Of a stretch of 30,962 bases of DNA, positions 6,023-29,800 are shown in pieces. The notes beneath the pieces were generated by a model. It saw only the letters and a program-made list of their open reading frames with translations. It was not told the DNA's origin and ran no database searches. The DNA is from a virus. Taxonomy: Duplodnaviria; Caudoviricetes. The stretch is from positions 1 to 30,962 of the IMG/VR virus record IMGVR_UViG_3300047480_000799. One strand, written 5' to 3'. Position numbers and translations under genes: made by a program. The stretch's first letter is position 1. Each line of letters starts with the position of its first letter.

Positions 6023-6542
6023 GGTTTTTCGGGGCAAGTAGTAATTTCAAATAATTTCCAAACGAAAAGCCCCAAAACAAATCGTTTGTGAATTATAAAA
6101 AAGCGTTTGGATTGTTTGTTTCTATTGTTTAAGAGACATTTTGACGCAGGTGTTTGAACAAGTGCGACATTTTGTCACAGCGTATTCTGAGCATGCTTTT
6201 CTATGGTAAAAACGTAGGAGAAAGAGAAGCCAAATTACGAACGATATTCGCTTAAATAAGGAGGCTGCGATCTACACCTCGAAAACGCTGAAACCATTGA
6301 GTATCAATGGCTTTTCGACTTTTCCTACCACTCTCCCTATACCAATAAACATAAGAGAATATATAGGGATAAACATAGAGAAAGAGACAAAAGAAACAGC
6401 GTGTTGGAATAATATAAGGAAAGAGGGGAGGGTGGGGGTGGATTCGCTGAATTAAAACTCTTTTTTATTACTTTTTCCCAATTTTTCCCAATTTTTCCTT
6501 TTTTTTCTTGACATATCCTTATATAACGCATACTATTGGCGC

Positions 6543-6800
6543 ATGAAGAAGATTTTAGCTTTCGTATTCGTTGCATTCCCTACGGGAATGATTCTAAGCG
6601 TGCTGCTTTCAGTTATTTTAGCTGTTGTGACATTTTGTCGCACCTTTGCAGACTACTGGACATACGTTTTGAACCAGTTCTTTCCTAGATACAACCCATC
6701 GACAGAGCTAGAAGAATACGCACAAAAAGAGTCTGATGTGTGGAGCAAGCATATTGCGCGTATGCAAGAAAAACAAAAAGAAAATGCGAAAAAAAACTAA
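6543..6800 (+). CDS. Small membrane protein
   Basis: Hydrophobic N-terminus; TTGACA-N17-TACTAT ends 6 nt upstream of the ATG. Confidence 0.7.
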   Translation: MKKILAFVFVAFPTGMILSVLLSVILAVVTFCRTFADYWTYVLNQFFPRYNPSTELEEYAQKESDVWSKHIARMQEKQKENAKKN

Positions 6801-6818
6801 CTAAAATTACGAAACAAA

Positions 6819-7073
6819 ATGATCGAAATAAACAAAACAGAAGAACTTATCTCCGCTTATAAACAATTCATTAATAACCTTAGTAAAATTCAAGAGGCTT
6901 CATATAGAGAACTTGTTGAAAAGATACCATTGATGGATATAGACGGCGAGGACTTTTTGTTCGATTACGTCTTTAATTTTTCCAGCAAAGAGTTTCCTAC
7001 CTTTTCTGATTACATGAAGCGATTCAATCCTGTTCATGCAAGCACGATTTGTGAATCACAAGAAGGCAAATAA
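6819..7073 (+). CDS. Hypothetical phage protein
   Basis: Co-oriented ORF. Confidence 0.65.
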   Translation: MIEINKTEELISAYKQFINNLSKIQEASYRELVEKIPLMDIDGEDFLFDYVFNFSSKEFPTFSDYMKRFNPVHASTICESQEGK

Positions 7074-7112
7074 ATTGCCCCAAATTACGAACAACATTTT
7101 CCTAAATAAACA

Positions 7113-7316
7113 ATGAATAATAATACTGAAATTACGAACGACATTGCGCTAAATAACACTGAGTCTAAATACTCTCAAGAAGACATTATGTGGGAGGCGC
7201 GGCGACAAAAGAACAAAAAGCTTTATCATTTTATGCGGCGACTGCTTGGTCGTGGTAAGCACTGGCTTCAGCAAGAACAACTGCCGAAGTCGCGACAGTT
7301 GGGTGGCGGCAAATAA
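7113..7316 (+). CDS. Hypothetical basic protein
   Basis: ATG 3 nt after an AATTACGAA-N11-TAAATAA motif. Confidence 0.5.
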   Translation: MNNNTEITNDIALNNTESKYSQEDIMWEARRQKNKKLYHFMRRLLGRGKHWLQQEQLPKSRQLGGGK

Positions 7317-7325
7317 ACACAAGCA

Positions 7326-7427
7326 ATGACTGATAGAAACATAGCAATATTATCATTAATAATTAATACTGTGACTGCTTTAGCTGCTATAACGAATATT
7401 CTGATTAGGATATTTTGCGCAATCTAA
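7326..7427 (+). CDS. 33-aa hydrophobic peptide
   Basis: Translated by hand: MTDRNIAILSLIINTVTALAAITNILIRIFCAI. Confidence 0.45.
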   Translation: MTDRNIAILSLIINTVTALAAITNILIRIFCAI

Positions 7428-7540
7428 AGATCTCTTTGCTTCGGTAAGGGGGGTGTGACATTTTGTCGCACCTCCAATTACGAATGATTTTCAGCCAAAT
7501 ATAAAAAACCAAATTACGAACGATTTTTCCCTAAATAAAC

Positions 7541-7984
7541 ATGAGTGATAATATACACCGAGGCAGCGACTTTAATGACTTTTTAAACAAAGAAATTGCG
7601 AAAGAATCGGGGCCAAATAAACAAAAATGGTTATGCGATAAGATCGGCGGCGATTGGCTAGACAAGGATTGCATCATCGAAATTACCTTGATCGAATGTC
7701 TGCGGCACTATGTAGAAGTCGAAAAAGGATTAAAAAATCCCGCAGATTACCAAGAAGAAATTGCGAAAGGTTTAATCGGAAATAAACGGTTAGCTAAGCT
7801 CCAGGAGGTATACGATGATCTTTCTTCTGCTTACGAATACATCATCACCAAATATGATAAACGAAATGAAGGCATGAAGGATCTTACTGTGAGACAAATG
7901 CTCGAAGCCGCAGACAAAAAACAAAAAGAAATAGATGATGTGGTTGCTAAGATCTGGAAGCATCGCAAAGAAATGTGGACTTAA
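7541..7984 (+). CDS. Hypothetical phage protein
   Basis: 147-aa ORF, ATG 2 nt after the bipartite motif. Confidence 0.7.
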   Translation: MSDNIHRGSDFNDFLNKEIAKESGPNKQKWLCDKIGGDWLDKDCIIEITLIECLRHYVEVEKGLKNPADYQEEIAKGLIGNKRLAKLQEVYDDLSSAYEYIITKYDKRNEGMKDLTVRQMLEAADKKQKEIDDVVAKIWKHRKEMWT

Positions 7985-8829: not shown

Positions 8830-9528
8830 CTAATATTTCCCACTTTTACTCATATTGTCTTTTGCCCACAAGGGCTGTAGATTAGTATAATGAAAGCAGG
8901 TTTTTATTTCTTCGGGGTCTGTTAAGTCAAATGAGCAGCGTGGTTTAATATGGTCGATATGCCAACAGTCAGAATGATCACCATTGGGATTGCCATAATT
9001 TTCCCAAGTCATGCCGTCTAAAAACAAAGATTCTAAATAAAGTTTTAGCTCTGGCATGGAGCATCCTATTAACTCCATAGTTCGTTGAGATTTCGCGCCC
9101 AATAAAAAACCATAAATTCTCTGTCTCAAAGCTTTACGCAAACGAATTTGAGGATTTGACCTGTTCTTTCTTCGGTTATTTGCTAACCGAGACTTAACTG
9201 ATTCTTTATTGTTTTCATACCACTCTCTATTTTGAGCGTTTTTCTTTTCTTTGTTACGTTCAAACCAAGAGCGATGAGCCAACTTCTGCTTTTCTTTATT
9301 TGCATCTCTATACGATTGAAAGTAATCGGGATTAGCTTCCATCCATTTCTTCTTTTTTAATTGACAGCATTCTTTGCAAGAGTATTGGGTTTTATAAAAC
9401 TCACTAATGTCTTTTGCTTTTTTACAACTTGCACACCAACGACAATTATTTTGCATCAAAAATTCTTTCTCTTTTTTGTTGACAATCTGCCCCGATATTG
9501 TAAAACTTTCCTTGTCGAAGTAACTCAT
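8830..9528 (-). CDS. HNH homing endonuclease (Cys-rich N-terminus)
   Basis: WHIDHIKP...CFHYTNLQPLWAKDN HNH motif and CxxC pairs; start at 9528 is supported by GTGTAA 8 nt upstream. Confidence 0.85.
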   Translation of the reverse strand: MSYFDKESFTISGQIVNKKEKEFLMQNNCRWCASCKKAKDISEFYKTQYSCKECCQLKKKKWMEANPDYFQSYRDANKEKQKLAHRSWFERNKEKKNAQNREWYENNKESVKSRLANNRRKNRSNPQIRLRKALRQRIYGFLLGAKSQRTMELIGCSMPELKLYLESLFLDGMTWENYGNPNGDHSDCWHIDHIKPRCSFDLTDPEEIKTCFHYTNLQPLWAKDNMSKSGKY

Positions 9529-10754: not shown

Positions 10755-10828
10755 GCGCTTGTAACTTAGCGGTCTAAAGTATTCGACTCATAATCGAGGA
10801 ATCACTGGTTCGAATCCAGTCGGGCGCA
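10755..10828 (+). tRNA. tRNA with CAT anticodon (elongator Met or Ile2)
   Basis: Full cloverleaf, TTCGA-CTCATAA-TCGAG, GGTTCGAATCC; G1-C72 paired; no encoded CCA. Confidence 0.88.
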
Positions 10829-10835
10829 CTTTTTA

Positions 10836-10926
10836 GGGGAAATGGCAGAGTGGTCTAATGCGCTCGACTTGAAATCGAGAGTGGGTTAAAAGCTCACCGT
10901 GGGTTCGAATCCTACTTTCCCCGCCA
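10836..10926 (+). tRNA. tRNA-Ser(TGA)
   Basis: GGGGAAA/TTTCCCC acceptor, CTCGA-CTTGAAA-TCGAG, long variable arm, G73, CCA. Confidence 0.93.
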
Positions 10927-10942
10927 ACCAAATCAAACAAAC

Positions 10943-11016
10943 TTTTCTGTAGCTTAATGGGACAAAGCGACTGTAGTAATATTCAGTAGATGTAGGTTCG
11001 AATCCTACCAGAAAAA
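10943..11016 (+). tRNA. Pseudo-tRNA / tRNA with non-canonical anticodon loop
   Basis: Acceptor TTTTCTG/CAGAAAA, D-arm and T-arm intact; anticodon arm ACTG-TAGTAATATT-CAGT has no standard 7-nt loop; ends CCT, not CCA. Confidence 0.65.
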
Positions 11017-11028
11017 CCTCAAATAAAT

Positions 11029-11106
11029 GAGGGGGTATCGGAACTGCCTTCTAAGCAGTAGCACCGTAAGGGATCAATGCTGGTTCGAATCCAGTTCCCC
11101 TCACCA
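11029..11106 (+). tRNA. D-armless tRNA-Arg(TCT)-like RNA
   Basis: GAGGGGG/TCCCCTC acceptor + A + CCA; ACTGC-CTTCTAA-GCAGT; canonical T-arm; only 7 nt in place of the D-arm; 19-nt variable region. Confidence 0.8.
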
Positions 11107-12826: not shown

Positions 12827-12932
12827 ATTATGCCCCCGATTTAATCAAATAAGGCTAAATAAGGAATGAATGTGCCTAAATAAGCGATAGGAAGTAATTT
12901 ATGACGTATTGCGTATTGAATAGAGACATGAA

Positions 12933-13111
12933 TAAACTGTTGGAAATCAAGCACTTACAGCAAAATGACCCCTACGGGGTCTGATCCGTGTAAGTCGTTC
13001 ATTATCAACAACTTATAACAAGCAATCGTAAACCTTTGAGTTTCAACAACTTACAGCGAAACGACCCCGTAGGGGTCGCGTGGGTGTAAGTCGTTGATTA
13101 TCAACAACTTA
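12933..13111. repeat. 83-bp symmetric element, copies 1-2 (tandem, 96-bp period)
   Basis: 12933-13015 (loop TAC) and 13029-13111 (loop GTA). Confidence 0.95.
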
Positions 13112-13123
13112 CGAAGACGATTT

Positions 13124-13150
13124 GCCCTACCCCCCGCTAAGGGGTAGGGC
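13124..13150 (-). terminator. Hairpin ending the - strand block
   Basis: GCCCTACCCC-N7-GGGGTAGGGC, perfect 10-bp stem just past the stop at 13162. Confidence 0.55.
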
Positions 13151-13161
13151 GTGCCATGTCA

Positions 13162-13422
13162 TCACTTACCGTTAGAAAGGTCTAGCATGTCTTCAGCCAA
13201 GATTGAGATGAGTTCTTCAGTGTATGTGTAGGGATCATCGCCGCAGCTTTCAGCGTGTTTTTCAATCGCATCCCATAGCATAATGCGGGGGCGGTTCTCG
13301 TCGTCCTCGTCAACCAAGGCGCAGCAGAGTTGGTCTGCCGTTAAATCGGGAACTTGTGAAAGAAAGTGTCCAGCGGCACGGAGATAGATAGCGGCATTTT
13401 TCGGGTCGTTTAGGTCTGTCAT
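13162..13422 (-). CDS. Hypothetical acidic protein
   Basis: Own TTGACC promoter immediately upstream. Confidence 0.7.
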   Translation of the reverse strand: MTDLNDPKNAAIYLRAAGHFLSQVPDLTADQLCCALVDEDDENRPRIMLWDAIEKHAESCGDDPYTYTEELISILAEDMLDLSNGK

Positions 13423-13462
13423 ATCGGGGAAAGGTTAGTTGTTTTGAGAGAGTGGTCAAGGT

Positions 13463-13522
13463 TTATTTTAACGCAATTAAAAACAACAGCAGCGCGAGTA
13501 GTAAGATTTGCCAAATGGTCAT
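13463..13522 (-). CDS. 19-aa hydrophobic peptide
   Basis: MTIWQILLLALLLFLIALK, starting 6 nt after the GP88 stop. Confidence 0.5.
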   Translation of the reverse strand: MTIWQILLLALLLFLIALK

Positions 13523-13528
13523 GCTGGT

Positions 13529-14248
13529 TCAATCACAAAGTCCGAAGAATTTTTGAGACTCTACAACAAAACCCGAAGAATCTTTTTTCGCTTTGCCTTT
13601 TTCGACAAGTCCGACGATGACGTTTTGAGGGTCAAGAAAGCGGAGGTCACTTTCGTCACCGCTAACGACACGATACCCTTTCCACGTTGGAGGAAGCGAG
13701 CCACGGAAAACCACGGCGACATTTCCGCCACTGGCAAGAACAGCATCGACAAGTTTTTCGTTAGACTCAGAACGGGAGAATGTCAGATCATAGTTCGATG
13801 GCAATTTTTCATCAAGAAAAGCAGTCATTCGAGATACGCTTTTTGTGTAGTCGTAGAATTGAACGTCAGGGAACAAATCAAAAACAGTTTTGCCGTTCAG
13901 TGTGATTTTTTCCCAAGGTAGATCGCTTGTCAGATTCAAACGAAAGCAGGGAGTAAGTTTTTTCTTTTCTGCCGATTTCACAGCAGCAGCGATTTCTTTC
14001 ACAAGTTGAGCCATGAATAAAGCCTTGTCTTGAAAGAAGAATTTTGTTTTTGCGATACGTGCAGCTTGCACAGTGGAGAAAACGCCATGCCCAGCGGTAT
14101 TGAGACAAGCAGCAGCACAGCCAGTGCTAGCGTTTTGACAAGTATTGAAGCCCGACAAGTTAGAAGGCGCGAGGTGAACGCCGAACGTCTGGAAGCCAAG
14201 AGCTTCTCCTTTTTTGATTTTGGTATTTGATGTAGTTAGCAATTTCAT
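13529..14248 (-). CDS. Gene product 88 (GP88) family protein, paralogue 1
   Basis: C..AS.GCAAACL Cys cluster, RLNLTSDLPWE, FYDYTK, NY.LTFSRSE, GD.SDLRFLD. Confidence 0.8.
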   Translation of the reverse strand: MKLLTTSNTKIKKGEALGFQTFGVHLAPSNLSGFNTCQNASTGCAAACLNTAGHGVFSTVQAARIAKTKFFFQDKALFMAQLVKEIAAAVKSAEKKKLTPCFRLNLTSDLPWEKITLNGKTVFDLFPDVQFYDYTKSVSRMTAFLDEKLPSNYDLTFSRSESNEKLVDAVLASGGNVAVVFRGSLPPTWKGYRVVSGDESDLRFLDPQNVIVGLVEKGKAKKDSSGFVVESQKFFGLCD

Positions 14249-14289
14249 GCGGAGAAAAGTTAGTTGTTTCGGGGGGAGTTGTCAAGAAT

Positions 14290-14649
14290 TTACCACCAAG
14301 AATAGTAAAAAACTTTCTTGCCCTCCTTGATAGCTTGGCGAGCCACAACAATAAAGTCGAGAGTTTGTTTTTTGTAGTAGTCATCGCCGCGAGAATCCGA
14401 GCCGAAAAAGAAGCCTTTTGTTTCTGGCAATTCATCAGCAAGAACAGCTTGCTCCAAGCGTTCAAGATGTTTTGCGTTCAATTGCAAAGGAATGCAGTTG
14501 AAAGATGGATCATCTTTATGGCGGCGAGGGCAACCCCTTTCTTCCCATAGCTTTTCCATCCAACCATGAAGCGCGTTATGTTTGCGCCAATAACCTATTT
14601 CTTGTTTTTCTTTTCCTTGCTTTGCGTAGAGATACATGTCCAGTCCCAT
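14290..14649 (-). CDS. Conserved phage protein (MGLDMYL...YWRKHNALHGW type)
   Basis: Motifs MGLDMYL, YWRK.N..HGW, LP.T.GFFFG and YYSWW; function unknown. Confidence 0.75.
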   Translation of the reverse strand: MGLDMYLYAKQGKEKQEIGYWRKHNALHGWMEKLWEERGCPRRHKDDPSFNCIPLQLNAKHLERLEQAVLADELPETKGFFFGSDSRGDDYYKKQTLDFIVVARQAIKEGKKVFYYSWW

Positions 14650-14788
14650 AGTAGTAGTGAGGTGATAGTTAGTTGTGAAGTGCGCCAATCATCGGCGACA
14701 CGCAAAAGATAGCATTTCGGCGGGAATTGTCAATATGTTTTTTGTATTTTTTCACAATTATTTTTGTGCGATTGTGCGAAAAAAGTTC

Positions 14789-14928
14789 TTGACAGACTCT
14801 AACGAAAAACCTCTAACAGATTTTTACCTACGGCAGCAATCGCCATAAACCGTTGGTTTTCAACAACTTACAGCAAAATGACCCCTTCGGGGTCGCGTCG
14901 ATGTAAGTCGTTGATTTTCAACAACTTA
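14789..14928. repeat. 83-bp element copy 3 with upstream TTGACA block
   Basis: Core 14846-14928 (loop TTC); TTGACA 57 bp before the core. Confidence 0.95.
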
Positions 14929-15001
14929 TGAGAATCCCCCACTAGAAGTAAGCTGTTTCCAGTCGGGGCATGGAGGCCCTTGTCCTTCTAGCGAGGGAAA
15001 A

Positions 15002-15139
15002 CTATTTCTTTTGTTCTTCGTCTATTTGTTTCTTACCATCACGACGAACAAGTTTGTTTTGTGCGCGTTTTCTGTCGCGTAGGTGTTTCCACCACTCGAC
15101 AGTTTTCACAGATCCTTTTGATTTACTTGATGAAGCCAT
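15002..15139 (-). CDS. 45-aa basic protein
   Basis: Translated by hand (MASSSKSKGSVKTVEWWKHLR...). Confidence 0.5.
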   Translation of the reverse strand: MASSSKSKGSVKTVEWWKHLRDRKRAQNKLVRRDGKKQIDEEQKK

Positions 15140-15350
15140 GAAAGCGTTTTTGATATTCTTCCCATTTCTGATGAAAAAGATTGTTTTCTTCTCCGTTTAA
15201 CGGTTCCACATTGTCAGGGTTCCACTTGCTACGCATCCAGCGAGAGTTAAATCCACTATCCATGCAAGAAGTCCAAAAGACTTTGTGTTGATTCCCGTCT
15301 TTCTCGACAATAGTTGAACGGTTAGATTTGAGTCTGTAAAGTTGTTTCAT
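15123..15350 (-). CDS. Hypothetical phage protein
   Basis: Co-oriented ORF, ATGA overlap with the upstream small ORF. Confidence 0.6.
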   Translation of the reverse strand: MKQLYRLKSNRSTIVEKDGNQHKVFWTSCMDSGFNSRWMRSKWNPDNVEPLNGEENNLFHQKWEEYQKRFHGFIK

Positions 15351-15481
15351 TTTCTACAAGCTTTTTTGTTTGATTCTTTCTTGCGGTCTTTGAATGAGAA
15401 GCAAGGCGGGGCGACAGGATGACGGACTAGGTTGCGCATGTCAAGAGAATTTTGCGCAAGTTGTTTCTTTTTTGTTTTCAT
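15347..15481 (-). CDS. 44-aa basic protein
   Basis: Translated by hand (MKTKKKQLAQ...); ATGA overlaps at both ends. Confidence 0.55.
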   Translation of the reverse strand: MKTKKKQLAQNSLDMRNLVRHPVAPPCFSFKDRKKESNKKACRK

Positions 15482-15828
15482 GCATAAATGTATTTTGGAA
15501 GTGGAATGCGAGTTCTAGCAGGGATACCCATTTCTTTACACACAGCGGCGAAATCTTCTCCATGTAAAATGCGGCGACCGTTCTTTCTCAGAAAGCGATT
15601 GCCATTCCGCTTGAACTGAATGAAGTGCGCAATCTCATGCTTCAAGACCTCATCGAATAGCTTGAATGAAACAAGAATAATTTTGTTGAGTTTGATTTTG
15701 TCTTGCGATACGTAGGCAAGACCGAGAAAGTTTTGTCCGTTCATCCATTCGATTTTGAGGTGAGACATTCCCCACTGTTTCAAGGTCATGCGGATGTATT
15801 GAGTGATTTCTGTAGTGGTGGCAAACAT
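15478..15828 (-). CDS. SprT-like zinc metalloprotease domain protein
   Basis: VLKHEIAH (HExxH) followed by HGEDF...C..MG. Confidence 0.8.
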   Translation of the reverse strand: MFATTTEITQYIRMTLKQWGMSHLKIEWMNGQNFLGLAYVSQDKIKLNKIILVSFKLFDEVLKHEIAHFIQFKRNGNRFLRKNGRRILHGEDFAAVCKEMGIPARTRIPLPKYIYA

Positions 15829-15876
15829 GGCGGCGAAAGTATTATGTTTTTCGGGGGGAGTGTCAAGAATTTTTAA

Positions 15877-16233
15877 TCAACGAGCAGCAAAAACTTTTTT
15901 ACCATTTAAGATCACTTCTTCTGCGAGAAAGATGTCTGAACCTTGGCACTGAAACCGATCTGCCTCATAAGGATTGTATCTAACAGAAAGAAAAGGCTTG
16001 TTAGACTGAATGCCAGAAACTAACGTGCCAATGATGAATGCGTGAACATTCTTTCTTTTTTGTTTAAGAACACGCTGGCGACCCGCTTCTGATACTTTGA
16101 ACTGCACGTTTCTAACGTAAGCATCTTCCAGATGCGCAACGACTTTCCAACGCCCATTTACTTTTGTCTGAACAGACAGCTTTTTCTTGTGGAGATTGAA
16201 ATAGATGCGAACGATTTGATTTAGTGGCAACAT
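15877..16233 (-). CDS. Conserved phage protein (YFNLHK...GRQRVL...KNVHAF)
   Basis: Recognisable motif set of a widespread phage hypothetical protein; start behind its own TTGACA. Confidence 0.75.
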   Translation of the reverse strand: MLPLNQIVRIYFNLHKKKLSVQTKVNGRWKVVAHLEDAYVRNVQFKVSEAGRQRVLKQKRKNVHAFIIGTLVSGIQSNKPFLSVRYNPYEADRFQCQGSDIFLAEEVILNGKKVFAAR

Positions 16234-16374
16234 GGCGAGAGAAAAATGCACTTTCTGCGGCTATTTGTCAACAAGTTTCTGCAAATAAAAATCAAATAAA
16301 TAGTAAATAAATAGTAAATAAATAACCGTTAAATAACCGTGCGGGGGGATTTGGGAGTAAATTTTGAATCTTCA

Positions 16375-16649
16375 TAAACCGTTGAGTATCAACGACTTAC
16401 GCCAAAACGACCCCTACGGGGTCTGATCCGTGTAAGTGCTTGATTATCAACAACTTATGACGAAGAGTCGTAAGCCGTTGAGTATCAACGACTTACGCCA
16501 AAACGACCCCTACGGGGTCTGATCCGTGTAAGTGCTTGATTATCAACAACTTATGACGAAGAGTCGTAAGCCGTTGAGTTTCAACAACTTACGGCAAAAC
16601 GACCCCGTAGGGGTCGCATCGGTGTAAGTCGTTCATTATCAACAACTTA
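16375..16649. repeat. 83-bp element copies 4-6 (tandem, 96-bp period)
   Basis: 16375, 16471 (loops TAC) and 16567 (loop GTA); identical 13-bp linkers TGACGAAGAGTCG. Confidence 0.95.
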
Positions 16650-16753
16650 CGACGATTGGCTTTGTGCGATTATGTCAAGACTTTTTTTTGAAAATGTTGG
16701 GGAGCGGCTAAACCAAAAACCGCTCCCCTTGTATGTCAACCACCGAAAAATTG

Positions 16754-16984
16754 TTAGACTTCGAAACCCTCCTCTTCTAACAGTTCTATCACAGCATCTT
16801 GCGCGATGCTGTAAAGTTCAGAAACGAGAGCGTTTTCCTCTCCCTCTTCTTCAATGTATTCTTCCATCTCATCAAGACCATACATGACGCAGGGAAGATC
16901 GGGCAAGTCAGAGAGGCAAAGACCCGACAAGTCGATGCAAGCGGCGTTCATGATAGTGAGGCATTTTTTACGTGTGTTATTCAT
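16754..16984 (-). CDS. Hypothetical acidic protein
   Basis: Own TTGACA promoter, 38 nt from -35 start to ATG. Confidence 0.7.
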   Translation of the reverse strand: MNNTRKKCLTIMNAACIDLSGLCLSDLPDLPCVMYGLDEMEEYIEEEGEENALVSELYSIAQDAVIELLEEEGFEV

Positions 16985-16996
16985 GGCAAGAAAATG

Positions 16997-17230
16997 TTAG
17001 TTGTTTTGAGGTGAGTTGTCAACAAGTTTTTTGACATATTGTTTTGTGGCTTGATGCGCGGCAGAACTTAAACAGCAATCGACATTAAAAAAACGGTTTT
17101 TGTAATTCAAATTGGCGTAGCAGATAAATTTTTCGCTTTCTGTTCCAAAATTTTCAGCGAGCAAAACACAGTTTTCGGCGTGGCAATTGTTTTCTTCGTT
17201 TTGCAAGTATTCTTTTAAGAGTTTGTTCAT
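16997..17230 (-). CDS. Hypothetical phage protein
   Basis: Own TTGACA promoter, 38 nt from -35 start to ATG. Confidence 0.7.
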   Translation of the reverse strand: MNKLLKEYLQNEENNCHAENCVLLAENFGTESEKFICYANLNYKNRFFNVDCCLSSAAHQATKQYVKKLVDNSPQNN

Positions 17231-17271
17231 GGCGGCGATATGTTAGTTGTTTTGGGGCAGATTGTCAAGAT

Positions 17272-17463
17272 TTATTTTGCTTCAATCACTCGCATTTCAT
17301 CGCTGCGTAATGCGTGACCGTAGAACATACGCAGCATTTTACACGCTTCCTCTTGCGTATCGTATTGATACGGTGCAGACGATGGAGTTTGACGGATTGA
17401 CTTCCAGATTTTTTTTGTGGGGTCTTGCGGGTCTTGGATTTTTATTTGCATTTCATATTTCAT
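17272..17463 (-). CDS. Hypothetical phage protein
   Basis: TTGCGC-type promoter directly upstream. Confidence 0.7.
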   Translation of the reverse strand: MKYEMQIKIQDPQDPTKKIWKSIRQTPSSAPYQYDTQEEACKMLRMFYGHALRSDEMRVIEAK

Positions 17464-17554
17464 GGCGGGGAAAGAGTAACAGTAAAAACCAATCGGCGCA
17501 AGTATTTTTTTTGATTATTTTCTAAAAAAAGTTTGTCATACGTGCAAAAAACAC

Positions 17555-17695
17555 TTGACAAAAGTCTAACGGAAAACGCTTTTTTTACTTGTTAGGAGCC
17601 TAACAACCTGCGTAAACCATTGATTTTCAATCACTTACGGCAAAACGACCCCGAAGGGGTCGCGTCGATGTAAGTCGTTGAGTATCAACGACTTA
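17555..17695. repeat. 83-bp element copy 7 with upstream TTGACA block
   Basis: Core 17613-17695 (loop GAA); TTGACA 58 bp before the core. Confidence 0.95.
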
Positions 17696-17750
17696 TGACG
17701 ATTCGCGATGTGTAAGCCAACCCCTTTCGGGGCTGGCTGTGTGTTTTCCG

Positions 17751-17900
17751 TTAGACGAACTCCAGAGTGCCTAACGGAACTTCATCCTCACGCCCATCCT
17801 CAAAGCGGATGAGGGCGCGATTTCCAACTGGAGTATTGACAACTTCGACAAGCTCAACTTCTGAGCCACAGTAAATGACGGTTTCGATTTCTTCAATCAT
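17751..17900 (-). CDS. 49-aa small beta-rich protein
   Basis: MIEEIETV...; TTGACT promoter directly upstream. Confidence 0.6.
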   Translation of the reverse strand: MIEEIETVIYCGSEVELVEVVNTPVGNRALIRFEDGREDEVPLGTLEFV

Positions 17901-18008
17901 GGCGAGAGAAAGATAGTTTATTTTTGCGGATAAGTCAACAAGTTTTTTTACTTTTTTTTGCATTTTGAGGGGAGCGGCGAAACAAAAAGCCGCCCCCCTC
18001 TGCCATGC

Positions 18009-18305
18009 TCAATCCACCACGATTGAAAATTGTTTTTCAATGCCGCCGCATTTGAAATGCGTAACCTTTTCAGGCATAAAACTAAAGTATGTATCACGAT
18101 TGCGATTCACGGCAAACATGTAGCCTTGCTGACGAAGAGCGGTGGTCGCTGGCGAGCCAGTTCCTTTAACCAGCTTTGAAAAGCGGTCTTTTGCGTTAAT
18201 GGTGCGCATCGTTCCATCTTTCTTTTGGAAAGTGATAGAAAAGAAACGTCCTTTTGTTGCGTCGATGAGTTGTGCGATTTCGGATTGTGTTGCGGTGTGT
18301 TGCAT
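18009..18305 (-). CDS. SH3 beta-barrel (WYL_2/DUF2693-like) protein
   Basis: FFSITFQKKDGTMRTI motif. Confidence 0.65.
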   Translation of the reverse strand: MQHTATQSEIAQLIDATKGRFFSITFQKKDGTMRTINAKDRFSKLVKGTGSPATTALRQQGYMFAVNRNRDTYFSFMPEKVTHFKCGGIEKQFSIVVD

Positions 18306-18377
18306 AGTTTTGTTTTGTTTGTTGTTAGTAGGCGAGAGAAAGTTAGTTGTTTTGGGGGGGGGTTGTCAAGATTTTTT

Positions 18378-18557
18378 TTAATTGTTTTTGATGTAGTTTT
18401 GAATGTGGGCGAGAGCGTAGCAAGTAGCTCCAAAAACAAAAAAGCAGATAGCGTCAAAGACTTCACTTTTGCCCCGATAGATGGCGAAAGCGCAGAAGCT
18501 GAAAATTGGAGATAGGGTGAGTAAGGCGGAACCGACGATGGTGGCGATGTGTTTCAT
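18378..18557 (-). CDS. 59-aa two-TM membrane protein
   Basis: Translated by hand (MKHIATIVGSALLTLSPIFSFCAFAIY...AICFFVFGATCYAL); TTGACA upstream. Confidence 0.6.
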   Translation of the reverse strand: MKHIATIVGSALLTLSPIFSFCAFAIYRGKSEVFDAICFFVFGATCYALAHIQNYIKNN

Positions 18558-18617
18558 GATGGAGTATTGGTTGCGGGGAAAGAATAGTTTATTTTTGCAG
18601 TATTGTCAACAAGTTTT

Positions 18618-18851
18618 TTATGCAAGTGCGCGTTTTGCGCGAAAAGTTTTCAACAGTCTTGCCGCCTCTTTGCGAGAAACAAAAACCGCCACAGCCATAT
18701 TTGCGCCGCCGAAAACGACAAGCTCCTCATGAGATTTGAAACGGCGCGAGCGTGTCATCTCGAAAAGGTCACAATCGTATTTTGTGCGTTCTGCGGTGCG
18801 AGTAGTGGTGAATTTTCCGTTTGAGTTTGTCTTGATGAATTGGTATGTCAT
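18618..18851 (-). CDS. Hypothetical basic protein
   Basis: Start MTYQF directly behind a TTGACT promoter. Confidence 0.65.
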   Translation of the reverse strand: MTYQFIKTNSNGKFTTTRTAERTKYDCDLFEMTRSRRFKSHEELVVFGGANMAVAVFVSRKEAARLLKTFRAKRALA

Positions 18852-18943
18852 GGCGAGGAAAGAATACTCTTTTTTGCGCGGATAGTCAACATTTTTTTTT
18901 GATTTATTTTCCGAAAAAAGTTTGTCATACTTGTAAAAAACGC

Positions 18944-19083
18944 TTGACAAAAGTCTAACGAAAAACGCTTTTTTGACTTGTTAGATAGCCTCGACACGAA
19001 TAAACCGTTGATTTTCAACAACTTACAGCAAAACGACCCCTTCGGGGTCGCCTCGACGTAAGTCGTTGATTTTCAACGACTTA
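18944..19083. repeat. 83-bp element copy 8 with upstream TTGACA block
   Basis: Core 19001-19083 (loop TTC); TTGACA 57 bp before the core. Confidence 0.95.
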
Positions 19084-19115
19084 TGACGATAAGCAACAAA
19101 ACAGTTGTCGAGTTT

Positions 19116-19340
19116 TTAGTCGCGCAACTGCACAAATTGCAAGCATTTCCAACCGACCCAACCTTTGCCATCATTGAAAACAGCTGTCTTTTCATCCCAG
19201 TAAGAAAAGATGCCGCGATTGGTATTGACTCCAGGCTTGAGTTGAGCGGCAATCTCTTCGCGCATCTCTTCGAGATCAGCTTCGATTTCCTTGCTGCGTG
19301 TGATTTGGTATGAGGGGCAGTGTGAATGGGGATGTCGCAT
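19116..19340 (-). CDS. Hypothetical protein (single-gene cassette)
   Basis: Only ORF between copies 8 and 9; TTGTGT-N17-TAAACT upstream. Confidence 0.65.
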   Translation of the reverse strand: MRHPHSHCPSYQITRSKEIEADLEEMREEIAAQLKPGVNTNRGIFSYWDEKTAVFNDGKGWVGWKCLQFVQLRD

Positions 19341-19432
19341 AACGAGAAAAGTTTAACCTAGAACCAACAAAAACACAAGAACTTTTTTCTATTTTTCGCA
19401 AAAAAGTTTTTTCAGAAAAGCGCGTTTTTTTC

Positions 19433-19572
19433 TTGACAAGAGTCTAACGAAAACCACTTTTTAAGCCGTTTGGACTCTAACGGCTTGCGTAAATCGTTGA
19501 TTTTCAACAACTTACGGCAAAACGACCCCGAAGGGGTCGCGTCGATGTAAGTCGTTGATTTTCAACAACTTA
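19433..19572. repeat. 83-bp element copy 9 with upstream TTGACA block
   Basis: Core 19490-19572 (loop GAA); TTGACA 57 bp before the core. Confidence 0.95.
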
Positions 19573-19613
19573 TTGAGGCAATCGACGCGCCACTTTGTCA
19601 AGCTTTTTTTTAT

Positions 19614-19670
19614 TTATTTTCGGTCTGCCAGCAGGAACAAAAGCACCGCAACAATCAAGAAAAAAATCAT
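19614..19670 (-). CDS. 18-aa hydrophobic peptide
   Basis: MIFFLIVAVLLFLLADRK, starting 15 nt after the GP88 paralogue 2 stop. Confidence 0.5.
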   Translation of the reverse strand: MIFFLIVAVLLFLLADRK

Positions 19671-19685
19671 TTTTTTCGTTAGGTG

Positions 19686-20381
19686 TTAGTGTTCGATCAC
19701 AAAGCCGCTTTCATCTTTCTTTGCCTTGCCTTTCTCGACAAGTCCGATGATGTTTCCCGAACCATCGAGAAAGCGCAAATCTGTATCATCGCCATTGACG
19801 ACTTGCACTCCCAAGTATTGAGAGGGAAGAGACTTGCGAAAAACCATTGCAACATTGCCGCCCGATTTAAGAATTGATTCAGCTATTGCGCCGTTAGTCT
19901 CCGAACGTGAGAAAGTCAAGTGATAATTTTTTGGCATTTCACCAGCAAGAAAAGCCGTCATGCGTTCGGGGCTTTTGGTGTAATCGTAAAACCAGCACTG
20001 CGGAAACATGTCAAAGATATTGCGCCCGTTCAATTTGATTTTTTCCCATGGCAAGTCACTTGTGAGATTCAAGCGGAAAGTTGCGACCATGCCATTTTTT
20101 TGAGCGGATTTGATAGCAGAAGAGATTTCTTTAATGAGCTGCGCCATGAATGACGCTTTATCTTTGAAAAACAATTTTGTTTTTTCAATTCTTGCGCGTT
20201 GCACGTTGGAATAGACTCCCATACCAGCGGTATTGAGACAAGCGGCGGCACATCCTGGAGATGCGTCTTTACAGACGTTGAAACCTGATAGACTAGCGGG
20301 GGCAAGGTGAATGCCGAAAGTTTTGTAACCGTGTTTTTCACCTTTTCGGATTTTTGTATTGGCGGTAGTAAGTAATTTCAT
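19686..20381 (-). CDS. Gene product 88 (GP88) family protein, paralogue 2
   Basis: Same motifs as 13529-14248, colinear along the full length. Confidence 0.8.
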   Translation of the reverse strand: MKLLTTANTKIRKGEKHGYKTFGIHLAPASLSGFNVCKDASPGCAAACLNTAGMGVYSNVQRARIEKTKLFFKDKASFMAQLIKEISSAIKSAQKNGMVATFRLNLTSDLPWEKIKLNGRNIFDMFPQCWFYDYTKSPERMTAFLAGEMPKNYHLTFSRSETNGAIAESILKSGGNVAMVFRKSLPSQYLGVQVVNGDDTDLRFLDGSGNIIGLVEKGKAKKDESGFVIEH

Positions 20382-20427
20382 GACGGGGAAAAGTTAGCAG
20401 ATTGAGGGATTTTGTCAATAGTTTTTT

Positions 20428-20601
20428 TTATTGTTTTTCTAAAGTATCGGAAAGCATGACAAGCAAGCCCATCGAACCAACAAAGCAAGCAATGCAAGCA
20501 ACGTGAACATGCGTTTCGCAAGATTGCGCTCCCGTGATGATTGCGAAAGCGGCAACGGAAAGAATAAGGGCGGTGAGTGTAAAGATAGCAAAGTATTTCA
20601 T
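20428..20601 (-). CDS. 57-aa two-TM membrane protein
   Basis: Two hydrophobic segments; TTGCGC promoter directly upstream. Confidence 0.6.
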   Translation of the reverse strand: MKYFAIFTLTALILSVAAFAIITGAQSCETHVHVACIACFVGSMGLLVMLSDTLEKQ

Positions 20602-20692
20602 GACGCGCAAAGAGTAGCATTTCAGAGACTAACGCGCAAGTATTTTTTTCTATTTTTTATTTATTTTTTTTGTGTTATGGCTTATTTTTTTC

Positions 20693-20832
20693 TTGACAAA
20701 AGCCTAACGAAAACCGTTTTTTGACTTGTTAGAAGTCTAACAATCTGCGTAAACCGTTGATTTTCAACAACTTACGGCAAAACGACCCCGAAGGGGTCGC
20801 GTCGATGTAAGTCGTTGATTTTCAACAACTTA
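20693..20832. repeat. 83-bp element copy 10 with upstream TTGACA block
   Basis: Core 20750-20832 (loop GAA); TTGACA 57 bp before the core. Confidence 0.95.
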
Positions 20833-20904
20833 TGACGATTGTGTTTTTTGTTGTTTTTTTTCTTGACAGGGGAGCCGATCTTGCGACCGACTCCCCCGCT
20901 GTTG

Positions 20905-21156
20905 TCAGACCACAAGGTCAATACCAGCAAGATGCAAGTTGCGGTATTTGCTTTCGCCATTGTCGTCTACATCTAACGCTTTCACGGTGACATAACGCTT
21001 GCCATTCTTGGCAAAGGCGACATTTTCAACCGCTTCAATTTTCAGGACGCGAACGCCGTCAGCTTTCAGCTTTGACTTTTCCGCAAAGTAGCGAACGGTT
21101 TTGTTGACGAGGGCGGAAACGAGTTTTTCAGTTGGTGTATTGTAGTCGAAGAACAT
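20905..21156 (-). CDS. Hypothetical small beta-rich protein
   Basis: Own TTGACA promoter, 38 nt from -35 start to ATG. Confidence 0.7.
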   Translation of the reverse strand: MFFDYNTPTEKLVSALVNKTVRYFAEKSKLKADGVRVLKIEAVENVAFAKNGKRYVTVKALDVDDNGESKYRNLHLAGIDLVV

Positions 21157-21207
21157 AACGAGGAAAAGATAAAGGATTTTTGCGAGTTTGTCAATTATTT
21201 TTTTTGA

Positions 21208-21396
21208 TTATTTCAACAAAGCAGCAATGCTCGAAAGCTCAAAAAACAATCCTAAGCAACAAATCACTCCCAGACTAGCAAGAACATGATGAATGCTTTC
21301 GCTAGAATTGATTCCTAAGCAAAAGCAGAGAATCATAAGAGCAATGAGCAACAAAGAACAAGAAAACAAAAGAACAAACTGAGTGAAGCTTCTCAT
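21208..21396 (-). CDS. 62-aa two-TM membrane protein
   Basis: Start MRSFTQ behind TTGACT; two hydrophobic segments. Confidence 0.6.
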   Translation of the reverse strand: MRSFTQFVLLFSCSLLLIALMILCFCLGINSSESIHHVLASLGVICCLGLFFELSSIAALLK

Positions 21397-21487
21397 GACG
21401 GGGAAAGTGTAAGGTTTTTTTTGTGTGTAAGTCAACAATTTTTTTTTGATTTTTTTGTGGGGGCTTTCGCCCCCGTTAGACTTTGCT

Positions 21488-21757
21488 TCAGTCTTGATAC
21501 GATTGCGCAATTTCTAACGCATGGAGCAAAGCAATTTTTGCCTCATGCTCTTCTTCCTCACAAAGCTCATAATCCGAGCCATCTTCTAACGTGGAAGAAA
21601 GAATCTCAAAACTATCAACAGGCGGCGTATCATAGTCGCCAAAATCGGAAAAGAAATGACCCTCGACGCAAACGTCGAAAGAACCAATGACGTTAAACTT
21701 GTCATCGAATTGCTCAATGGTGATAAAGGCGGTGACGGTGTGTGATGAACTGGACAT
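21488..21757 (-). CDS. Hypothetical acidic protein
   Basis: TTGCGC-N17-TACCAT ends 6 nt upstream of ATG 21757; terminator-like hairpin GGGGGC-TTTC-GCCCCC after the stop. Confidence 0.7.
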   Translation of the reverse strand: MSSSSHTVTAFITIEQFDDKFNVIGSFDVCVEGHFFSDFGDYDTPPVDSFEILSSTLEDGSDYELCEEEEHEAKIALLHALEIAQSYQD

Positions 21758-22068
21758 GCGCAAATGGTAATGCAAAAACAGGTGAAGCGCAAGAACTTTT
21801 TTCGTGTTTTGTGAAGATTTTTTTTGTGTCATGCGAGAAGAAAACGGTTGACAACCACCCCCCCATTTCTCAAAAAAATTGTTAGACGCTTCTGCGCTGC
21901 GCGGGGGGGGGATACTTTCCTCATTCTCCCAACACAAACGCAAACAAACCACACACCCTCCCCCCATTTCTCGGGCGCGATTGCGCCAACACAGAAAAAC
22001 CCCAAAAAACTTCAAAAAAAAATCCCAGACCCTGTTTTCACAAAACCTTTTATAAACACAAAAAAAAT

Positions 22069-22074
22069 GTGTAA
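22069..22074 (+). promoter_or_regulatory. Putative phage late promoter GTGTAA-N9-ATG
   Basis: Same motif and spacing at 22937-22942 and 29947-29952; N8 variant before the HNH gene. Confidence 0.65.
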
Positions 22075-22083
22075 TAAACAGAG

Positions 22084-24183: not shown

Positions 24184-24873
24184 GTGGAAGAACCTCGCAT
24201 AAAGACATACGAAGAGTGTTATCATATAATTGACTCTGTTGTTTCAAAATATCAGAACAAGTGGCGGCTTAACGCTATCAACTGGTTCGATTTTGAAGAC
24301 GTAGCGCAAATCATCAAAACCCATATCTTCAAAAAATGGGATATGTGGGATCAAAGCAGACCGCTTGAGCCTTGGGTTTCAAGAATTGCCTCGCACCAAA
24401 TCAAAAACATTGTGCGCAACAATTACACCAATTACGTGAAGCCTTGTATGTCTTGTCCTCACAACATGGGCGACAACTTATGCTCTCTTACTTCCTCTGG
24501 CGAACAAAATTCTTCATGCTCGATGTATGCAAAATGGGCAAAGTCAAAAAGACAAGGCTATGGAGTCAAAATGCCGCTTGCTATGGAAAATCATCAGCAA
24601 GAAATAGATTCTTTCACAGATTCTGGCGTAGACTTCACAAGTGTTATAGATCGTCTCAACAGCATACTTAAAAAAGAACTTTCTGCTGAGCATTATAAAG
24701 TTTACATGATGTTGTTTTTTGAAAATGCATCGGAAGATGATGTAGCTCAATACATGGGCTACAAAACATCAGAAAAAAACCGAGCAGCAGGATACAAACA
24801 AATCAAAAACCTAAAAAAAATGCTCAAAGAGAAAGTCCAAGAAATTATTGAGAAAAACGATATAGTTCTATGA
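24184..24873 (+). CDS. Phage RNA polymerase sigma factor (sigma70/ECF-like)
   Basis: Region-2-like FEDVAQ...WD.SRPLEPWVSRIASHQIKN; C-terminal HTH (SEDDVAQYMGY); Cys-rich insert. Confidence 0.7.
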   Translation: MEEPRIKTYEECYHIIDSVVSKYQNKWRLNAINWFDFEDVAQIIKTHIFKKWDMWDQSRPLEPWVSRIASHQIKNIVRNNYTNYVKPCMSCPHNMGDNLCSLTSSGEQNSSCSMYAKWAKSKRQGYGVKMPLAMENHQQEIDSFTDSGVDFTSVIDRLNSILKKELSAEHYKVYMMLFFENASEDDVAQYMGYKTSEKNRAAGYKQIKNLKKMLKEKVQEIIEKNDIVL

Positions 24874-26846: not shown

Positions 26847-29800
26847 ATGGCTTGGGAAAAAGGACATCAAATATTGCATAAGAAATTCGACAAGATCAAC
26901 GAAGAGATCTTGAATACAAAAGGATTTCTTGAAGAAGAAAAGGCTAAAGTTCTCTTGTATAAATTCTTAAAAGAGAATCCATCTTTCACTTCTGAACTTA
27001 TTTCAGGAGTTTCATTGTTCCCTTTCCAACACATGGCAATTAAAGCGATGATGGAGACAGATTACTTCTTGGGGATATGGTGTCTTTCGGAAGATGAATA
27101 TGTACTAACTGAAAATGGGTTCAAAAAAATTAAAGATATTCAAGTTGGTGAAATGGTTCGTTCTCGCGAGCAGCTCAATTTAGTCACAGACAAAAGAATT
27201 AACCCCCTGGAAGATGGACTAGAAATAACCCTGAAATCTGGCGATTCATTTAAGGCTAAAATTGGACATAAAACTCTTATTTTCAGAGATTTTCAGTTTC
27301 AATTCGAAGAGATTCAAAACATTAAAGAAGGAGACGTTGTTCCAGTAAAATTGGGAACAGATGTCTGGGGAAACCAGGATATTTTTAAAGATTTTAATTT
27401 CAAAAACAAGCAGCACTTATTCTACTGGCTGGGATATGTTTTGGGCGATGGTTATATCAATCAAGATGGAGTTCACTATTGCTCGGAAAATTATGAAATT
27501 CAAGAAGCGATCTTGAAATTTACACAAGCTAATGATTTTAAAATGTATGCTCGTCAACGCAGCGCTAATTTAAATTTCTACGAGTATTCAGTATTTAATC
27601 GAGAATTGGTTAAAGCATTAGAATCAATAGGTTGGGATAAATCTCTAAAATCAAAAGATAAACTAATCTGTGATCAAATCTTAGCCGCAGAAAAAGGAAA
27701 TCTATGCGCTTTAATTGGTGGATTATTTGATGCGGATGGATATGCATCTTTTCAACCAAACAATAGTAAAGTGGGATTAAAAAACACATCTCTTCAATTA
27801 TTGCGTCAAGTAAAAATGCTTTTAAATAACTTGGGAGTTGAATCTAATTTGAGGCTTTCTGGGCAAAACAATGATGTGCCTTATTATGATCTAGTATTAA
27901 CAAATGACGCTTCTAGCTTAAAGAAATTTCAAGAAGAAATAGACTTTATTGTTTCTCATAAAAAATCCAATCTTCAAAAAATCATTGATAGATCTAGCTC
28001 AAGAAACTACCAAAATAAACTGATTCCAAGATTTGGACAATTACTAAAAAAAGAAGGTTCACGCGAAAAGCTCTGTGGGAAAAAGGGGCAATGGGGAATA
28101 GATTTTTCTCAAAATGAATTGGATAATCTCCAGGATTTGTCAGAAGATACTAAATATATTATTGATTCAATTAAAGAAGAAAGGGTTGCGTTTTCTGTGG
28201 TAAAAACCATTGCGCCTTGCCAAGTAAGATCAGTAGATATTACTGTAGAAAATGAAGAGTGCTATATCGGCAATGGTATTGTGCATCATAATTCGAGGGG
28301 CCTTTCCAAGTCTTTCACAACTGGTATTTTTGCCGCGATGGACGCTATTTTGAACCAAGGTGTCTATATTGGCATTATATCAAAGTCTTTCCGTCAGAGT
28401 CGAATGATCTTTAACAAGATTGAAGAGATTGCTAAGAGTCCAAAGGCAGCGTTCTTATCGCAATGCATTACAAGAGTAAGCAAATCAAATGACCAATGGG
28501 TAATGGAGATTGGTCGCAGTAAAATCATCGCACTTCCTCTTGGTGACGGTGAAAAACTAAGGGGTTTCCGCTTCCAAAGAATGATTATCGACGAGCTTCT
28601 TTTGATGCCAGAGAAAATTATTAACGAAGTTATTCTTCCGTTCTTGGCCGTTGTAGAAAACCCTACAGAGCGCCAGAAGATTTATGATTTGGAAACAAAG
28701 ATGATTGCGGCAGGAAAGATGAAAGAAGAAGACCGCCACAAATGGCCACATAACAAGATTATTGGATTGTCTTCTGCGTCTTATAAGTTCGAATATCTGT
28801 ATAAGCTTTATCAGCAATACGAAAACCTCATTCTCAATCCATCTAAACAAGATAATGCTCATAGGGTTATTATGCACTTGAGCTACGATTGTGCGCCAAA
28901 ACAATTGTATGATCAAAACCTGTTGGATCAATCGAAAGCTACTATGAGCGAAGCTCAGTTTGAACGAGAGTTTGGCTCTGTCTTTACAGATGATAGCTCT
29001 GGATACTTTAAGGTCAGTAAAATGGCAGCTTGCACCATTCCTGATGGCGAAGGTCAATCTGTGGAAGTGATCGGCGACAAAAACGCTGAGTATATTTTGT
29101 CTTTTGACCCATCTTGGTCTGAAAGCGAAGGTTCTGACGACTTTGCAATGCACGTAATTAAGCTAAATGCTGATAAGCGATCTGGAACGATAGTTCATTC
29201 TTATGCATTAGCTGGCGCAAACCTCAAAAAACATATTGTATACTTTCACTACCTGTATACTCATTTCAATATTACAATGATTGTTGGTGACTACAACGGC
29301 GGCGTTCAGTTTATCAACTCATGCAATGAAAGTGAGATCTTTAAAAAGGCTGGAATACAAATTCAATGTATTGATGTTGATTTCGACGATCCTCAAAACT
29401 ACGCAGTCGATCTTCGTATTGCTCGTAACCAATACAATGTAGAATCAAAGAAAATATGTATTCTCAGAAAGCCTAGCTCTCAATGGATTCGCAGCGCAAA
29501 TGAAATGCTACAAGCAGCCTTCGACCATAAAAAGATTTGGTTCGCTGGCGCTGCTCTTGATGACGATTATTCGCGCCAAAAAGCAGCGGTAATACCTATC
29601 GACGAGCTTTCTTTCTCGCGATACAATGATGATGTAGATTCTTACGCTAAACAAATCGACTTGATCGAGCACTTGAAGGCTACAGTTGATACCACAAAAG
29701 TCCAATGTGCTTTGATTCAAGTTTCTACTACCACAAACGGCTCGCAATCTTTTGATTTGCCGCACAATCTTAAAAAGCAGCGCAATGCTGATAAAGCAAG

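Follow-up and report, generated by a model that had tools for sequence, protein, structure and literature searches.

Repeated palindromic DNA associated with small genes or promoters has been described in several forms. In integrons, attC sites are repeated imperfect palindromes that lie between small accessory genes and can fold into single-strand hairpins. The REP/BIME repeats with an IHF site (RIP and RIB) are intergenic repeats that combine a GC hairpin with an IHF consensus. Bending by IHF aids promoters at Mu Pe and lambda PL (an IHF-activated early promoter of Mu was reportedly described by van Ulsen in 1996), and temperate phages are known to use IHF at single sites. For the T4-type phages, the accessible portions of the published descriptions report PeSL (promoter/stem-loop) cassettes, intergenic repeats that join a GGGG/CCCC stem-loop to AT-rich DNA and a promoter of sigma70 type; they lie in a hypervariable region whose genes are small orphans, and there indels and replacements end in the repeats and mini-circles have been shown (PMC2839356; PMC4122927). 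Here we analyze a 30,962-nucleotide stretch of a virus of the Caudoviricetes (IMG/VR record IMGVR_UViG_3300047480_000799, positions 1 to 30,962; hereafter the window), in which ten copies of an 83-bp element, the core, separate blocks of small genes. We suggest, with middling confidence and from sequence comparison, that each core is a twin symmetric docking site for a host dimer of the IHF/HU family, set in PeSL-like regulatory cassettes.

The window belongs to a tailed phage and is identical to part of a 47-kb partial virus record (G002). Whole-genome searches were carried out on a relative of 133,831 bp that is rated complete (G001) and is collinear with the window at 69–91% identity. The cores start at 12933, 13029, 14846, 16375, 16471, 16567, 17613, 19001, 19490 and 20750. 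Every core is 83 bp long and has the ungapped arrangement 25+8+17+8+25, in which two palindromic boxes, A and B, flank a GC hairpin. Pairwise, the cores are identical at 64–82 of 83 bases (mean 71), and successive cores are separated by 13, 1734, 1446, 13, 13, 963, 1305, 406 and 1177 bp. Boxes with at most two mismatches to TAAN4TTGAN3TCAAN4TTA are found 21 times in the window against 0.37 expected; the chance level was set with 100 third-order Markov simulations, none of which contained more than two boxes. The 21st box stands alone outside the gene island, at 6290..6314, has two mismatches and is identical in the relative L011. A preliminary description of this DNA had reported ten co-oriented cores, a geometry without indels, blocks of 0.4–1.7 kb and three empty 13-bp junctions, and all of these hold, with the number of boxes far above chance. 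Of the hairpin CGACCCC-N3-GGGGTCG that it gave, the 6-bp stem GACCCC/GGGGTC is invariant, but the outer pair is broken in four of the ten cores.

The boxes resemble binding sites for IHF. The IHF consensus is WATCAANNNNTTR (PMC5224486), and in the accessible part of a second source the site consists of WATCAR between two kinks 9 bp apart, with TTR in the flank (bioRxiv 10.1101/382655). A further listing, in which the rows for the IHF and H-NS motifs look exchanged, was disregarded (PMC6907758). Two copies of WATCAANNNNTTR mirrored about the W give exactly 25 bp, which is the box. Exact consensus sites number 26 in the window compared with 4.3 expected, and 20 of the 26 lie in boxes; 17 of the 20 core boxes contain a perfect half and the other three have one mismatch. 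Elsewhere, 284 of 370 distinct boxes have a perfect half. The search pattern leaves three central positions free; there, the same 370 boxes have W at the center in 86% and A adjacent to it in 56%. Because these boxes are kin to each other and partly selected by the pattern, we count the match as support and not as a probability. Among 134 boxes of the window's clade, TT at positions 8–9 is kept in 97%, AA at 17–18 in 87%, G10 in 81% and C16 in 84%, positions that the pattern itself partly selects. The TT and AA steps lie 9 bp apart and may be the kink positions of an IHF site. A protein atlas search for a clue to the host returned viral clusters only, and RuvB homologues carried no host names. 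Like sites of the lambda H'/H1 type, as far as the accessible portions of the sources describe them, the boxes have WATCAANNNNTTR half-sites, TT/AA steps 9 bp apart and a position upstream of early-type promoters (PMC5224486; bioRxiv 10.1101/382655). Unlike E. coli sites, which have the consensus in one half of the footprint, the putative sites here are mirrored, paired 58 bp center to center and repeated ten times.

Most island genes have their own sigma70-type promoter (TTGACA-17-TANNNT) a few bases before the ATG and hence near-leaderless starts, in agreement with the small minus-strand genes with individual promoters of the preliminary description. Twelve of the 23 strict leaderless promoters of G001 are inside the island, and from these promoters we infer a region of early type. 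All six cores with a gene block on the left have behind them a promoter that points left, away from the core, at 116–125 bp: the distances from the center of box A to the -35 are 125, 116, 124, 124, 124 and 123 bp for cores 3, 4, 7, 8, 9 and 10. Core 1 and the tandem cores 2, 5 and 6 have no promoter of their own. In four relatives, box A is 76–77, 95–97, 102–104, 114–115 or 123–126 bp from the -35, and one promoter is met at 104, 116 and 126 bp. None of the right-pointing controls scored above zero in the 13 sequence sets covered. Over all loci, 932 pair sides were reduced to 257 clusters, with a strict promoter pointing away in 35 and towards the pair in 5. A period near 10 bp in the promoter distances is suggestive (R 0.48 at 9.5 and 0.40 at 10.5, 15 periods tried).

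A second motif, TTGACA-N4-5-CTAAC, is present just left of cores 3, 7, 8, 9 and 10 (14789, 17555, 18944, 19433 and 20693) and nowhere else in the window; G001 has it five times, every one inside the island. It is on the plus strand, points into the core, has an A-rich upstream part and stands back to back with the real promoter, with no consensus -10 at 17 bp. It is possibly a silent or decoy promoter. From one of the alignments (A2), six L204 rows with wrong-strand coordinates were disregarded.

The preliminary description had held that the element matches neither attC nor PeSL. The first half of that statement stands, but the composite of stem-loop, AT-rich stretch and sigma70-type promoter has PeSL anatomy. 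A sigma70-type promoter with AT-rich upstream DNA and a GC stem-loop are found in the same unit (every core has its central hairpin, and separate hairpins lie right of several cores), and indel ends are enriched in the repeats. The accessible PeSL descriptions give no flanking IHF-type palindromes and include a Shine-Dalgarno sequence (PMC2839356; PMC4122927), whereas the starts here are near-leaderless. The locus differs further in its rigid core geometry, about 120 bp behind the -35, and in a phage that is not T4-like (G001 encodes a lambda-type tail protein L and DnaE). The twin-box module would be an addition to PeSL-like regulatory cassettes that is not in the PeSL descriptions.

To see how widely the boxes occur, viral contigs were scanned for two boxes 20–50 bp apart. 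The scan returned 149 loci, and we estimate about 420 stored viral stretches. The box-to-box spacers are mostly 23–28 or 32–34 bp across lineages. They are GC-rich in contigs that have island genes or neighboring genes in common with the window, and AT-rich in contigs of about 30% G+C, including contigs of 238–274 kb. Because the spacers differ between lineages, what is conserved is the box, and the hairpin is particular to a clade. Phage contigs that differ widely in size and G+C carry the same box, which is the reason for seeking the binding protein in the host. In crAssphage ZA (L196), a sole exact box lies at 96697-96721, in an intergenic gap beside an annotated RepL-like gene. Matches in T1-like phages to the box pair of another contig were rejected, as they are a terminator between terminase and portal. 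In two other viral contigs (L047:2994-3120 and L159:294-420), a pair of dif-like sequences alternates with boxes; we take the ATTTAACATAA arm of these sequences to be the XerD side of dif. The arrangement suggests a Xer site with IHF-type accessory sites. In L105, L112, L163 and L184, box pairs 34 bp apart enclose a common GCACCWTAWGGTGC palindrome, which looks like the core of an attachment site.

The full, hairpin-bearing core, as opposed to a lone box, has one match in a scan of 185,579 genomes. This match (contig C1 of G008, locus L192) is a 139-kb contig with 55-bp identical ends, the same island genes and an array of cores with 33-bp spacers, filed in a Saccharibacteria bin. It is probably a phage contig in a bacterial bin, and therefore the bin gives no host assignment. 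The core shares with RIP/RIB the GC hairpin and IHF consensus in an intergenic repeat. It differs in its reverse layout, with two boxes around one hairpin, in the lack of a Y1/RAYT gene in G001 and in this single genomic match, on a contig with identical ends. Origin from a host REP or Rfam family, as considered in the preliminary description, is not borne out: the Rfam scan of the window gave four tRNAs and nothing else, and the genome scan with the hairpin-bearing core gave the single match above. In the open-access literature, with subscription papers and supplements outside the search, we met with no account of such boxes, paired, symmetric and of IHF type, in the early regions of phages. 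The element family is real, widespread and probably undescribed.

The IHF-consensus match and the near-fixed distance behind host-type promoters together make a docking site for a host protein likely. The confinement of the boxes to one island, and the absence of the searched recombinase and IHF/HU families from G001, are in line with this reading. Each box would bind one dimer of a host bending protein of the IHF/HU family, with the conserved TT and AA steps as kink sites. The element separates the end of each small-gene unit from the host-type promoter of its neighbor, and the bound pair would insulate the units and activate the presumed early promoters. Two bends per core would shape the AT-rich DNA behind the promoter and thereby may aid RNA polymerase or block a silencer. 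In this clade alone, the central hairpin and the TTTT that follows it on the transcribed strand may also act as a weak terminator. Genes would be gained and lost by homologous recombination of the ordinary kind, for which the many similar promoters are the main substrates and the cores secondary ones; the phage itself would supply the RecA-family, nuclease and RuvB-like genes. The preliminary description had proposed an array of sites for a dimeric phage protein in an early region; the array, the dimer and the early region are supported, but a host IHF/HU-family dimer is likelier than a phage protein. More tentatively, and with real doubt, we propose that in a large group of uncultured phages the DNA that is expressed first, and possibly enters first, is pre-patterned with paired, symmetrized sites for a host nucleoid protein. 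When the DNA enters, host IHF/HU would fold the island into a chain of double bends, switching on takeover genes and keeping off silencers and nucleases. As part of the same doubtful proposal, such pre-patterning would amount to a cis-acting, protein-free counter-defence and expression switch made of DNA geometry only. If host docking is correct, arrays of 20 symmetric sites in phages without an integrase, common to hundreds of viral contigs, would mean that recruitment of a host nucleoid protein is a general tool of such phages for their early region. The element can serve to flag early islands in the genomes of uncultured phages, and it offers a way into the DNA specificity of IHF/HU proteins from hosts that have been little studied. 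Our own contribution lies in the strain-level breakpoint counts and the promoter distance series.

A number of observations weigh against host docking. The exact symmetric box is absent from ten of 11 named phage records, including T5, T1, phiCbK and crAss001. The symmetric form is also rare in E. coli, with eight exact matches, seven of which are two variants of one sequence and are located, we presume, at the starts of rRNA operons. In G001, 9 of 20 boxes have a GCG center and miss the consensus by two in both halves. The box-to-box spacing, examined in 56 spacer clusters, has no reliable helical period (p 0.03 against a uniform null, 0.21 against a decaying one). The period in the promoter distances is carried by the related 33-bp clade (n=14), and the 22–28-bp group is without it (n=18, p 0.17 at 10.5). 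A strict away-pointing promoter is missing in 222 of the 257 clusters, about half of which are downstream sides where none is expected, and most promoters within blocks have no core behind them. Fixed distances can arise by block duplication. In a pair of duplicated segments in G006, one copy has a box pair and the other does not. Finally, the nearest box is at about -160, more upstream than in classic IHF-activated promoters.

The island is organized as follows.

12933..13015, no strand: core 1, made up of box A, GC hairpin and box B; the island's left boundary, from the box scan.
13029..13111, no strand: core 2, in tandem with core 1 (96-bp unit), from the box scan.
13112..14845, minus strand: block with a GC hairpin, an 86-amino-acid (aa) gene, a GP88 gene (PF17338) and a 119-aa gene; promoter -35 at 14733.
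14846..14928, no strand: core 3; left-flank motif at 14789; center of box A 125 bp from the -35.
14929..16374, minus strand: block of five small open reading frames (ORFs), including SprT-like (PF10263) and L5 gp82-like (PF25735); TAAATA repeats at 16297-16335.
16375..16649, no strand: cores 4, 5 and 6, a tandem group with a 96-bp period; distance from the -35 to box A of core 4, 116 bp.
16650..17612, minus strand: block with a hairpin and three small genes, a promoter each; left-flank motif at 17555.
17613..17695, no strand: core 7, 124 bp from the -35.
17696..19000, minus strand: block with a hairpin and four small genes with promoters; left-flank motif at 18944.
19001..19083, no strand: core 8, 124 bp from the -35.
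19084..19489, minus strand: one-gene block (74 aa), whose homologue in relatives lies right of the last core; left-flank motif at 19433.
19490..19572, no strand: core 9, 124 bp from the -35.
19573..20749, minus strand: block with the second GP88 gene and a small gene; left-flank motif at 20693.
20750..20832, no strand: core 10, 123 bp from the -35.
20833..21800, minus strand: last block, with a hairpin and three small genes with promoters.
21840..22083, no strand: conserved non-coding module of C-tracts and G-tract, from which the island and the PhoH/sigma/terminase block diverge.

Gene turnover was followed in five strains (the window, L020, L012, L007 and L204) aligned in five pairs. We counted 37 indel events of at least 90 bp, some of them in two pairs. 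Of the 74 ends, 33 are in single-gene promoter zones (15–16% of the sequence), 15 are within 20 bp of a core (11–13%) and 26 are elsewhere; since either genome could decide the class of an end, both shares are raised. In about ten of the 37 events a whole unit bounded by cores is gained, lost or exchanged; among them are precise core-plus-block units of 503 and 829 bp and the tandem expansion at 16375-16649. Their ends are in the core or in the homologous left flank, at no fixed base. Three events delete a core, with ends in promoters or leaders. The tandem at 16375-16649 has three cores in the window and one or two in relatives, and boundaries of identical tracts between the closest strains are never at cores. 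Gene order is mostly collinear; a 74-aa gene has changed place, and certain genes have copies in more than one block. The preliminary description had advised a test of whether gene content differs exactly at core boundaries; whole units of core and block are sometimes gained or lost. Its proposal of dedicated repeat-mediated shuffling is not supported: more ends fall in promoters than at cores, the core deletions end in promoters or leaders, order is mostly kept, and the recombinase families searched for are absent from the complete relative. The element does not look like a new recombination system, and gene shuffling is best read as a by-product of homologous recombination. In G006, a 5.7-kb island segment is present twice, at 17.6-23.3 kb and 141.9-147.7 kb (L215, L216), with 96.5% identity and different flanks. 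The two segments differ by a whole box pair between the same genes, and the duplicate may reflect either recent exchange between phages or a chimeric assembly.

Four other explanations were weighed against docking of a host protein for early expression. The boxes might bind the same host IHF/HU-family protein for architecture, in a first-entering end or long terminal repeat, and serve to fold or protect incoming DNA, aid entry or packaging, or titrate the protein. We consider this unlikely. All 20 boxes of G001 lie in one 9.7-kb island (64.1-73.8 kb) beside the terminase block, several distant relatives have boxes adjoining PhoH/sigma/terminase genes, and all island genes point away from the conserved non-coding module, as an architectural role would have it; the tandem groups (cores 1-2 and 4-6) also include promoter-less copies, and core 1 has no promoter. 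Against it stands the strong bias to away-pointing promoters at near-fixed distances. Contig depth left of, in and right of the island is 18/24/14 in one run and 21/13/13 in another run of the same sample, and the two disagree on a doubling of the island. That the boxes are operators, at which a dimeric regulator encoded by the phage turns early units off or switches them, is in our estimate distinctly unlikely. Perfect dyads are typical of homodimeric regulators, the rarity of the symmetric form in E. coli fits a phage protein, and most G001 proteins are without a Pfam family. A phage regulator does not readily account for the same box in the 238–274-kb contigs of low G+C and once in crAssphage, or for the IHF match at unselected positions, and a box at least 100 bp from the -35 is too distant for steric repression.

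The cores might instead act as PeSL-type terminators or single-strand hairpins and recombination handles, with the likeness to IHF sites incidental; we give this a very low probability. Single cores do fold as long DNA hairpins (z -3.5 to -4.2), and in all 67 distinct cores the hairpin loop, which the search pattern leaves unconstrained, is GAA, GTA or one of their complements, TTC and TAC. In nine of the ten window cores the hairpin with TTTT is read on the transcribed strand, with a T-run of only four, and PeSL stem-loops, in the accessible portion of their description, generally have GGGG...CCCC (PMC2839356). However, the folding follows from two similar palindromes, and the loops are split evenly between strands (34 and 33). 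Across the 67 related cores, most variable positions show no paired covariation, be it inside a box or from box to box. Of 34 fold-back pairs, 4 are above shuffles at p<0.01, and the few positions that pair above shuffles (7/77, 19/65, 29/55, 34/50) favor the hairpin; the weak covariation of free positions fits a double-strand site. The hairpin and T-run are moreover not retained in relatives with 23–28-bp spacers, and single boxes also stand alone. The lowest probability of all goes to an integron-like, site-specific cassette system at the cores, run by a host or an unrecognized phage recombinase. Such a system would explain the core-bounded events, the 74-aa gene in a different block than in relatives, the dif-like sequences flanked by boxes in two other viral contigs, and one contig of depth 4 that links core 9 to the right of core 3. 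That joint falls within 41 bases identical between the cores, so the assembly is unable to resolve it, and a second run of the sample has no cover there; core joints in runs X7 and X9 came from 90-95% relatives and were left unused. Event ends scatter across the core and its flanks without a constant cut site, gene order is largely collinear, and the spacer varies between lineages. A search beyond the window for a tyrosine or serine recombinase or an HUH protein, as the preliminary description had advised, found none in G001: Pfam searches gave no match to PF00589, PF00239, PF01797, PF00216 or PF14848, that is, no integrase, resolvase, Y1 transposase or IHF/HU gene. PF00216 (IHF/HU) had no match in eight virus records, and PF00589 none in six further ones. 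The cores share with attC arrays the imperfect palindromes between small accessory genes and the possibility of a single-strand hairpin. They differ in the missing integrase (PF00589, 0/3 in a first search and 0/6 in further virus records), in cassettes that have their own promoters and hairpins, in constant length and little covariation, and in gene turnover that is mostly inside blocks, with no fixed exchange point.

The module at 21840-22083 consists of C-tracts, a G-tract followed by ATAC, and an A-tract with ATCCC and GTGTAA. It is kept in the relatives L035, L204, L018, L213 and L026, and is a candidate for a genome end, packaging or origin signal. A motif of the form AATTACGAACGA...CTAAATAA is repeated together with TAAATA repeats (6227-7620, 12855-12882 and 16297-16335), and TAAATA repeats lie left of both tandem core groups. 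These repeats are possibly promoters for the phage sigma-like protein encoded at 24184.

Metagenome runs holding at least half of the stretch are freshwater, from three studies, one of which is possibly the source study. Among the 136 G001 proteins scanned, Pfam matches include tail protein L, DnaE, DnaB, primase, a RecA-family protein, a PD-(D/E)XK nuclease, SSB, RNR and ThyX. Window genes match RuvB-like, ERCC4, PhoH, sigma-like and an intein-split terminase. A close cultured relative was not found, terminase identity being at most 28.5% among the matches listed (25 of 93 phage records), and blastn with the core yielded nothing beyond short matches. The island genes are small, on the minus strand and mostly without a function by Pfam, except for the two GP88 genes and the SprT-like and L5 gp82-like genes. 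PHROGs assigned them to families of unknown function only, and none of the 15 island proteins was matched by PADLOC. Each island has GP88 twice. A DUF932 gene (L035:6272-7072) is found in most relatives' islands, often as the sole gene between two cores. It was rejected as the acting protein; in the window's own 47-kb partial record a homologue was not found. An ORF on the minus strand at 8830-9480, with an HNH-like C-terminus by eye (no Pfam hit), precedes the RuvB-like gene, and four tRNA genes lie left of the island at 10755-11103. The terminase large subunit (26847-29918) contains an intein bearing a LAGLIDADG domain. The reading frames at the terminase place in G001 are shorter, which suggests that the intein is missing there.

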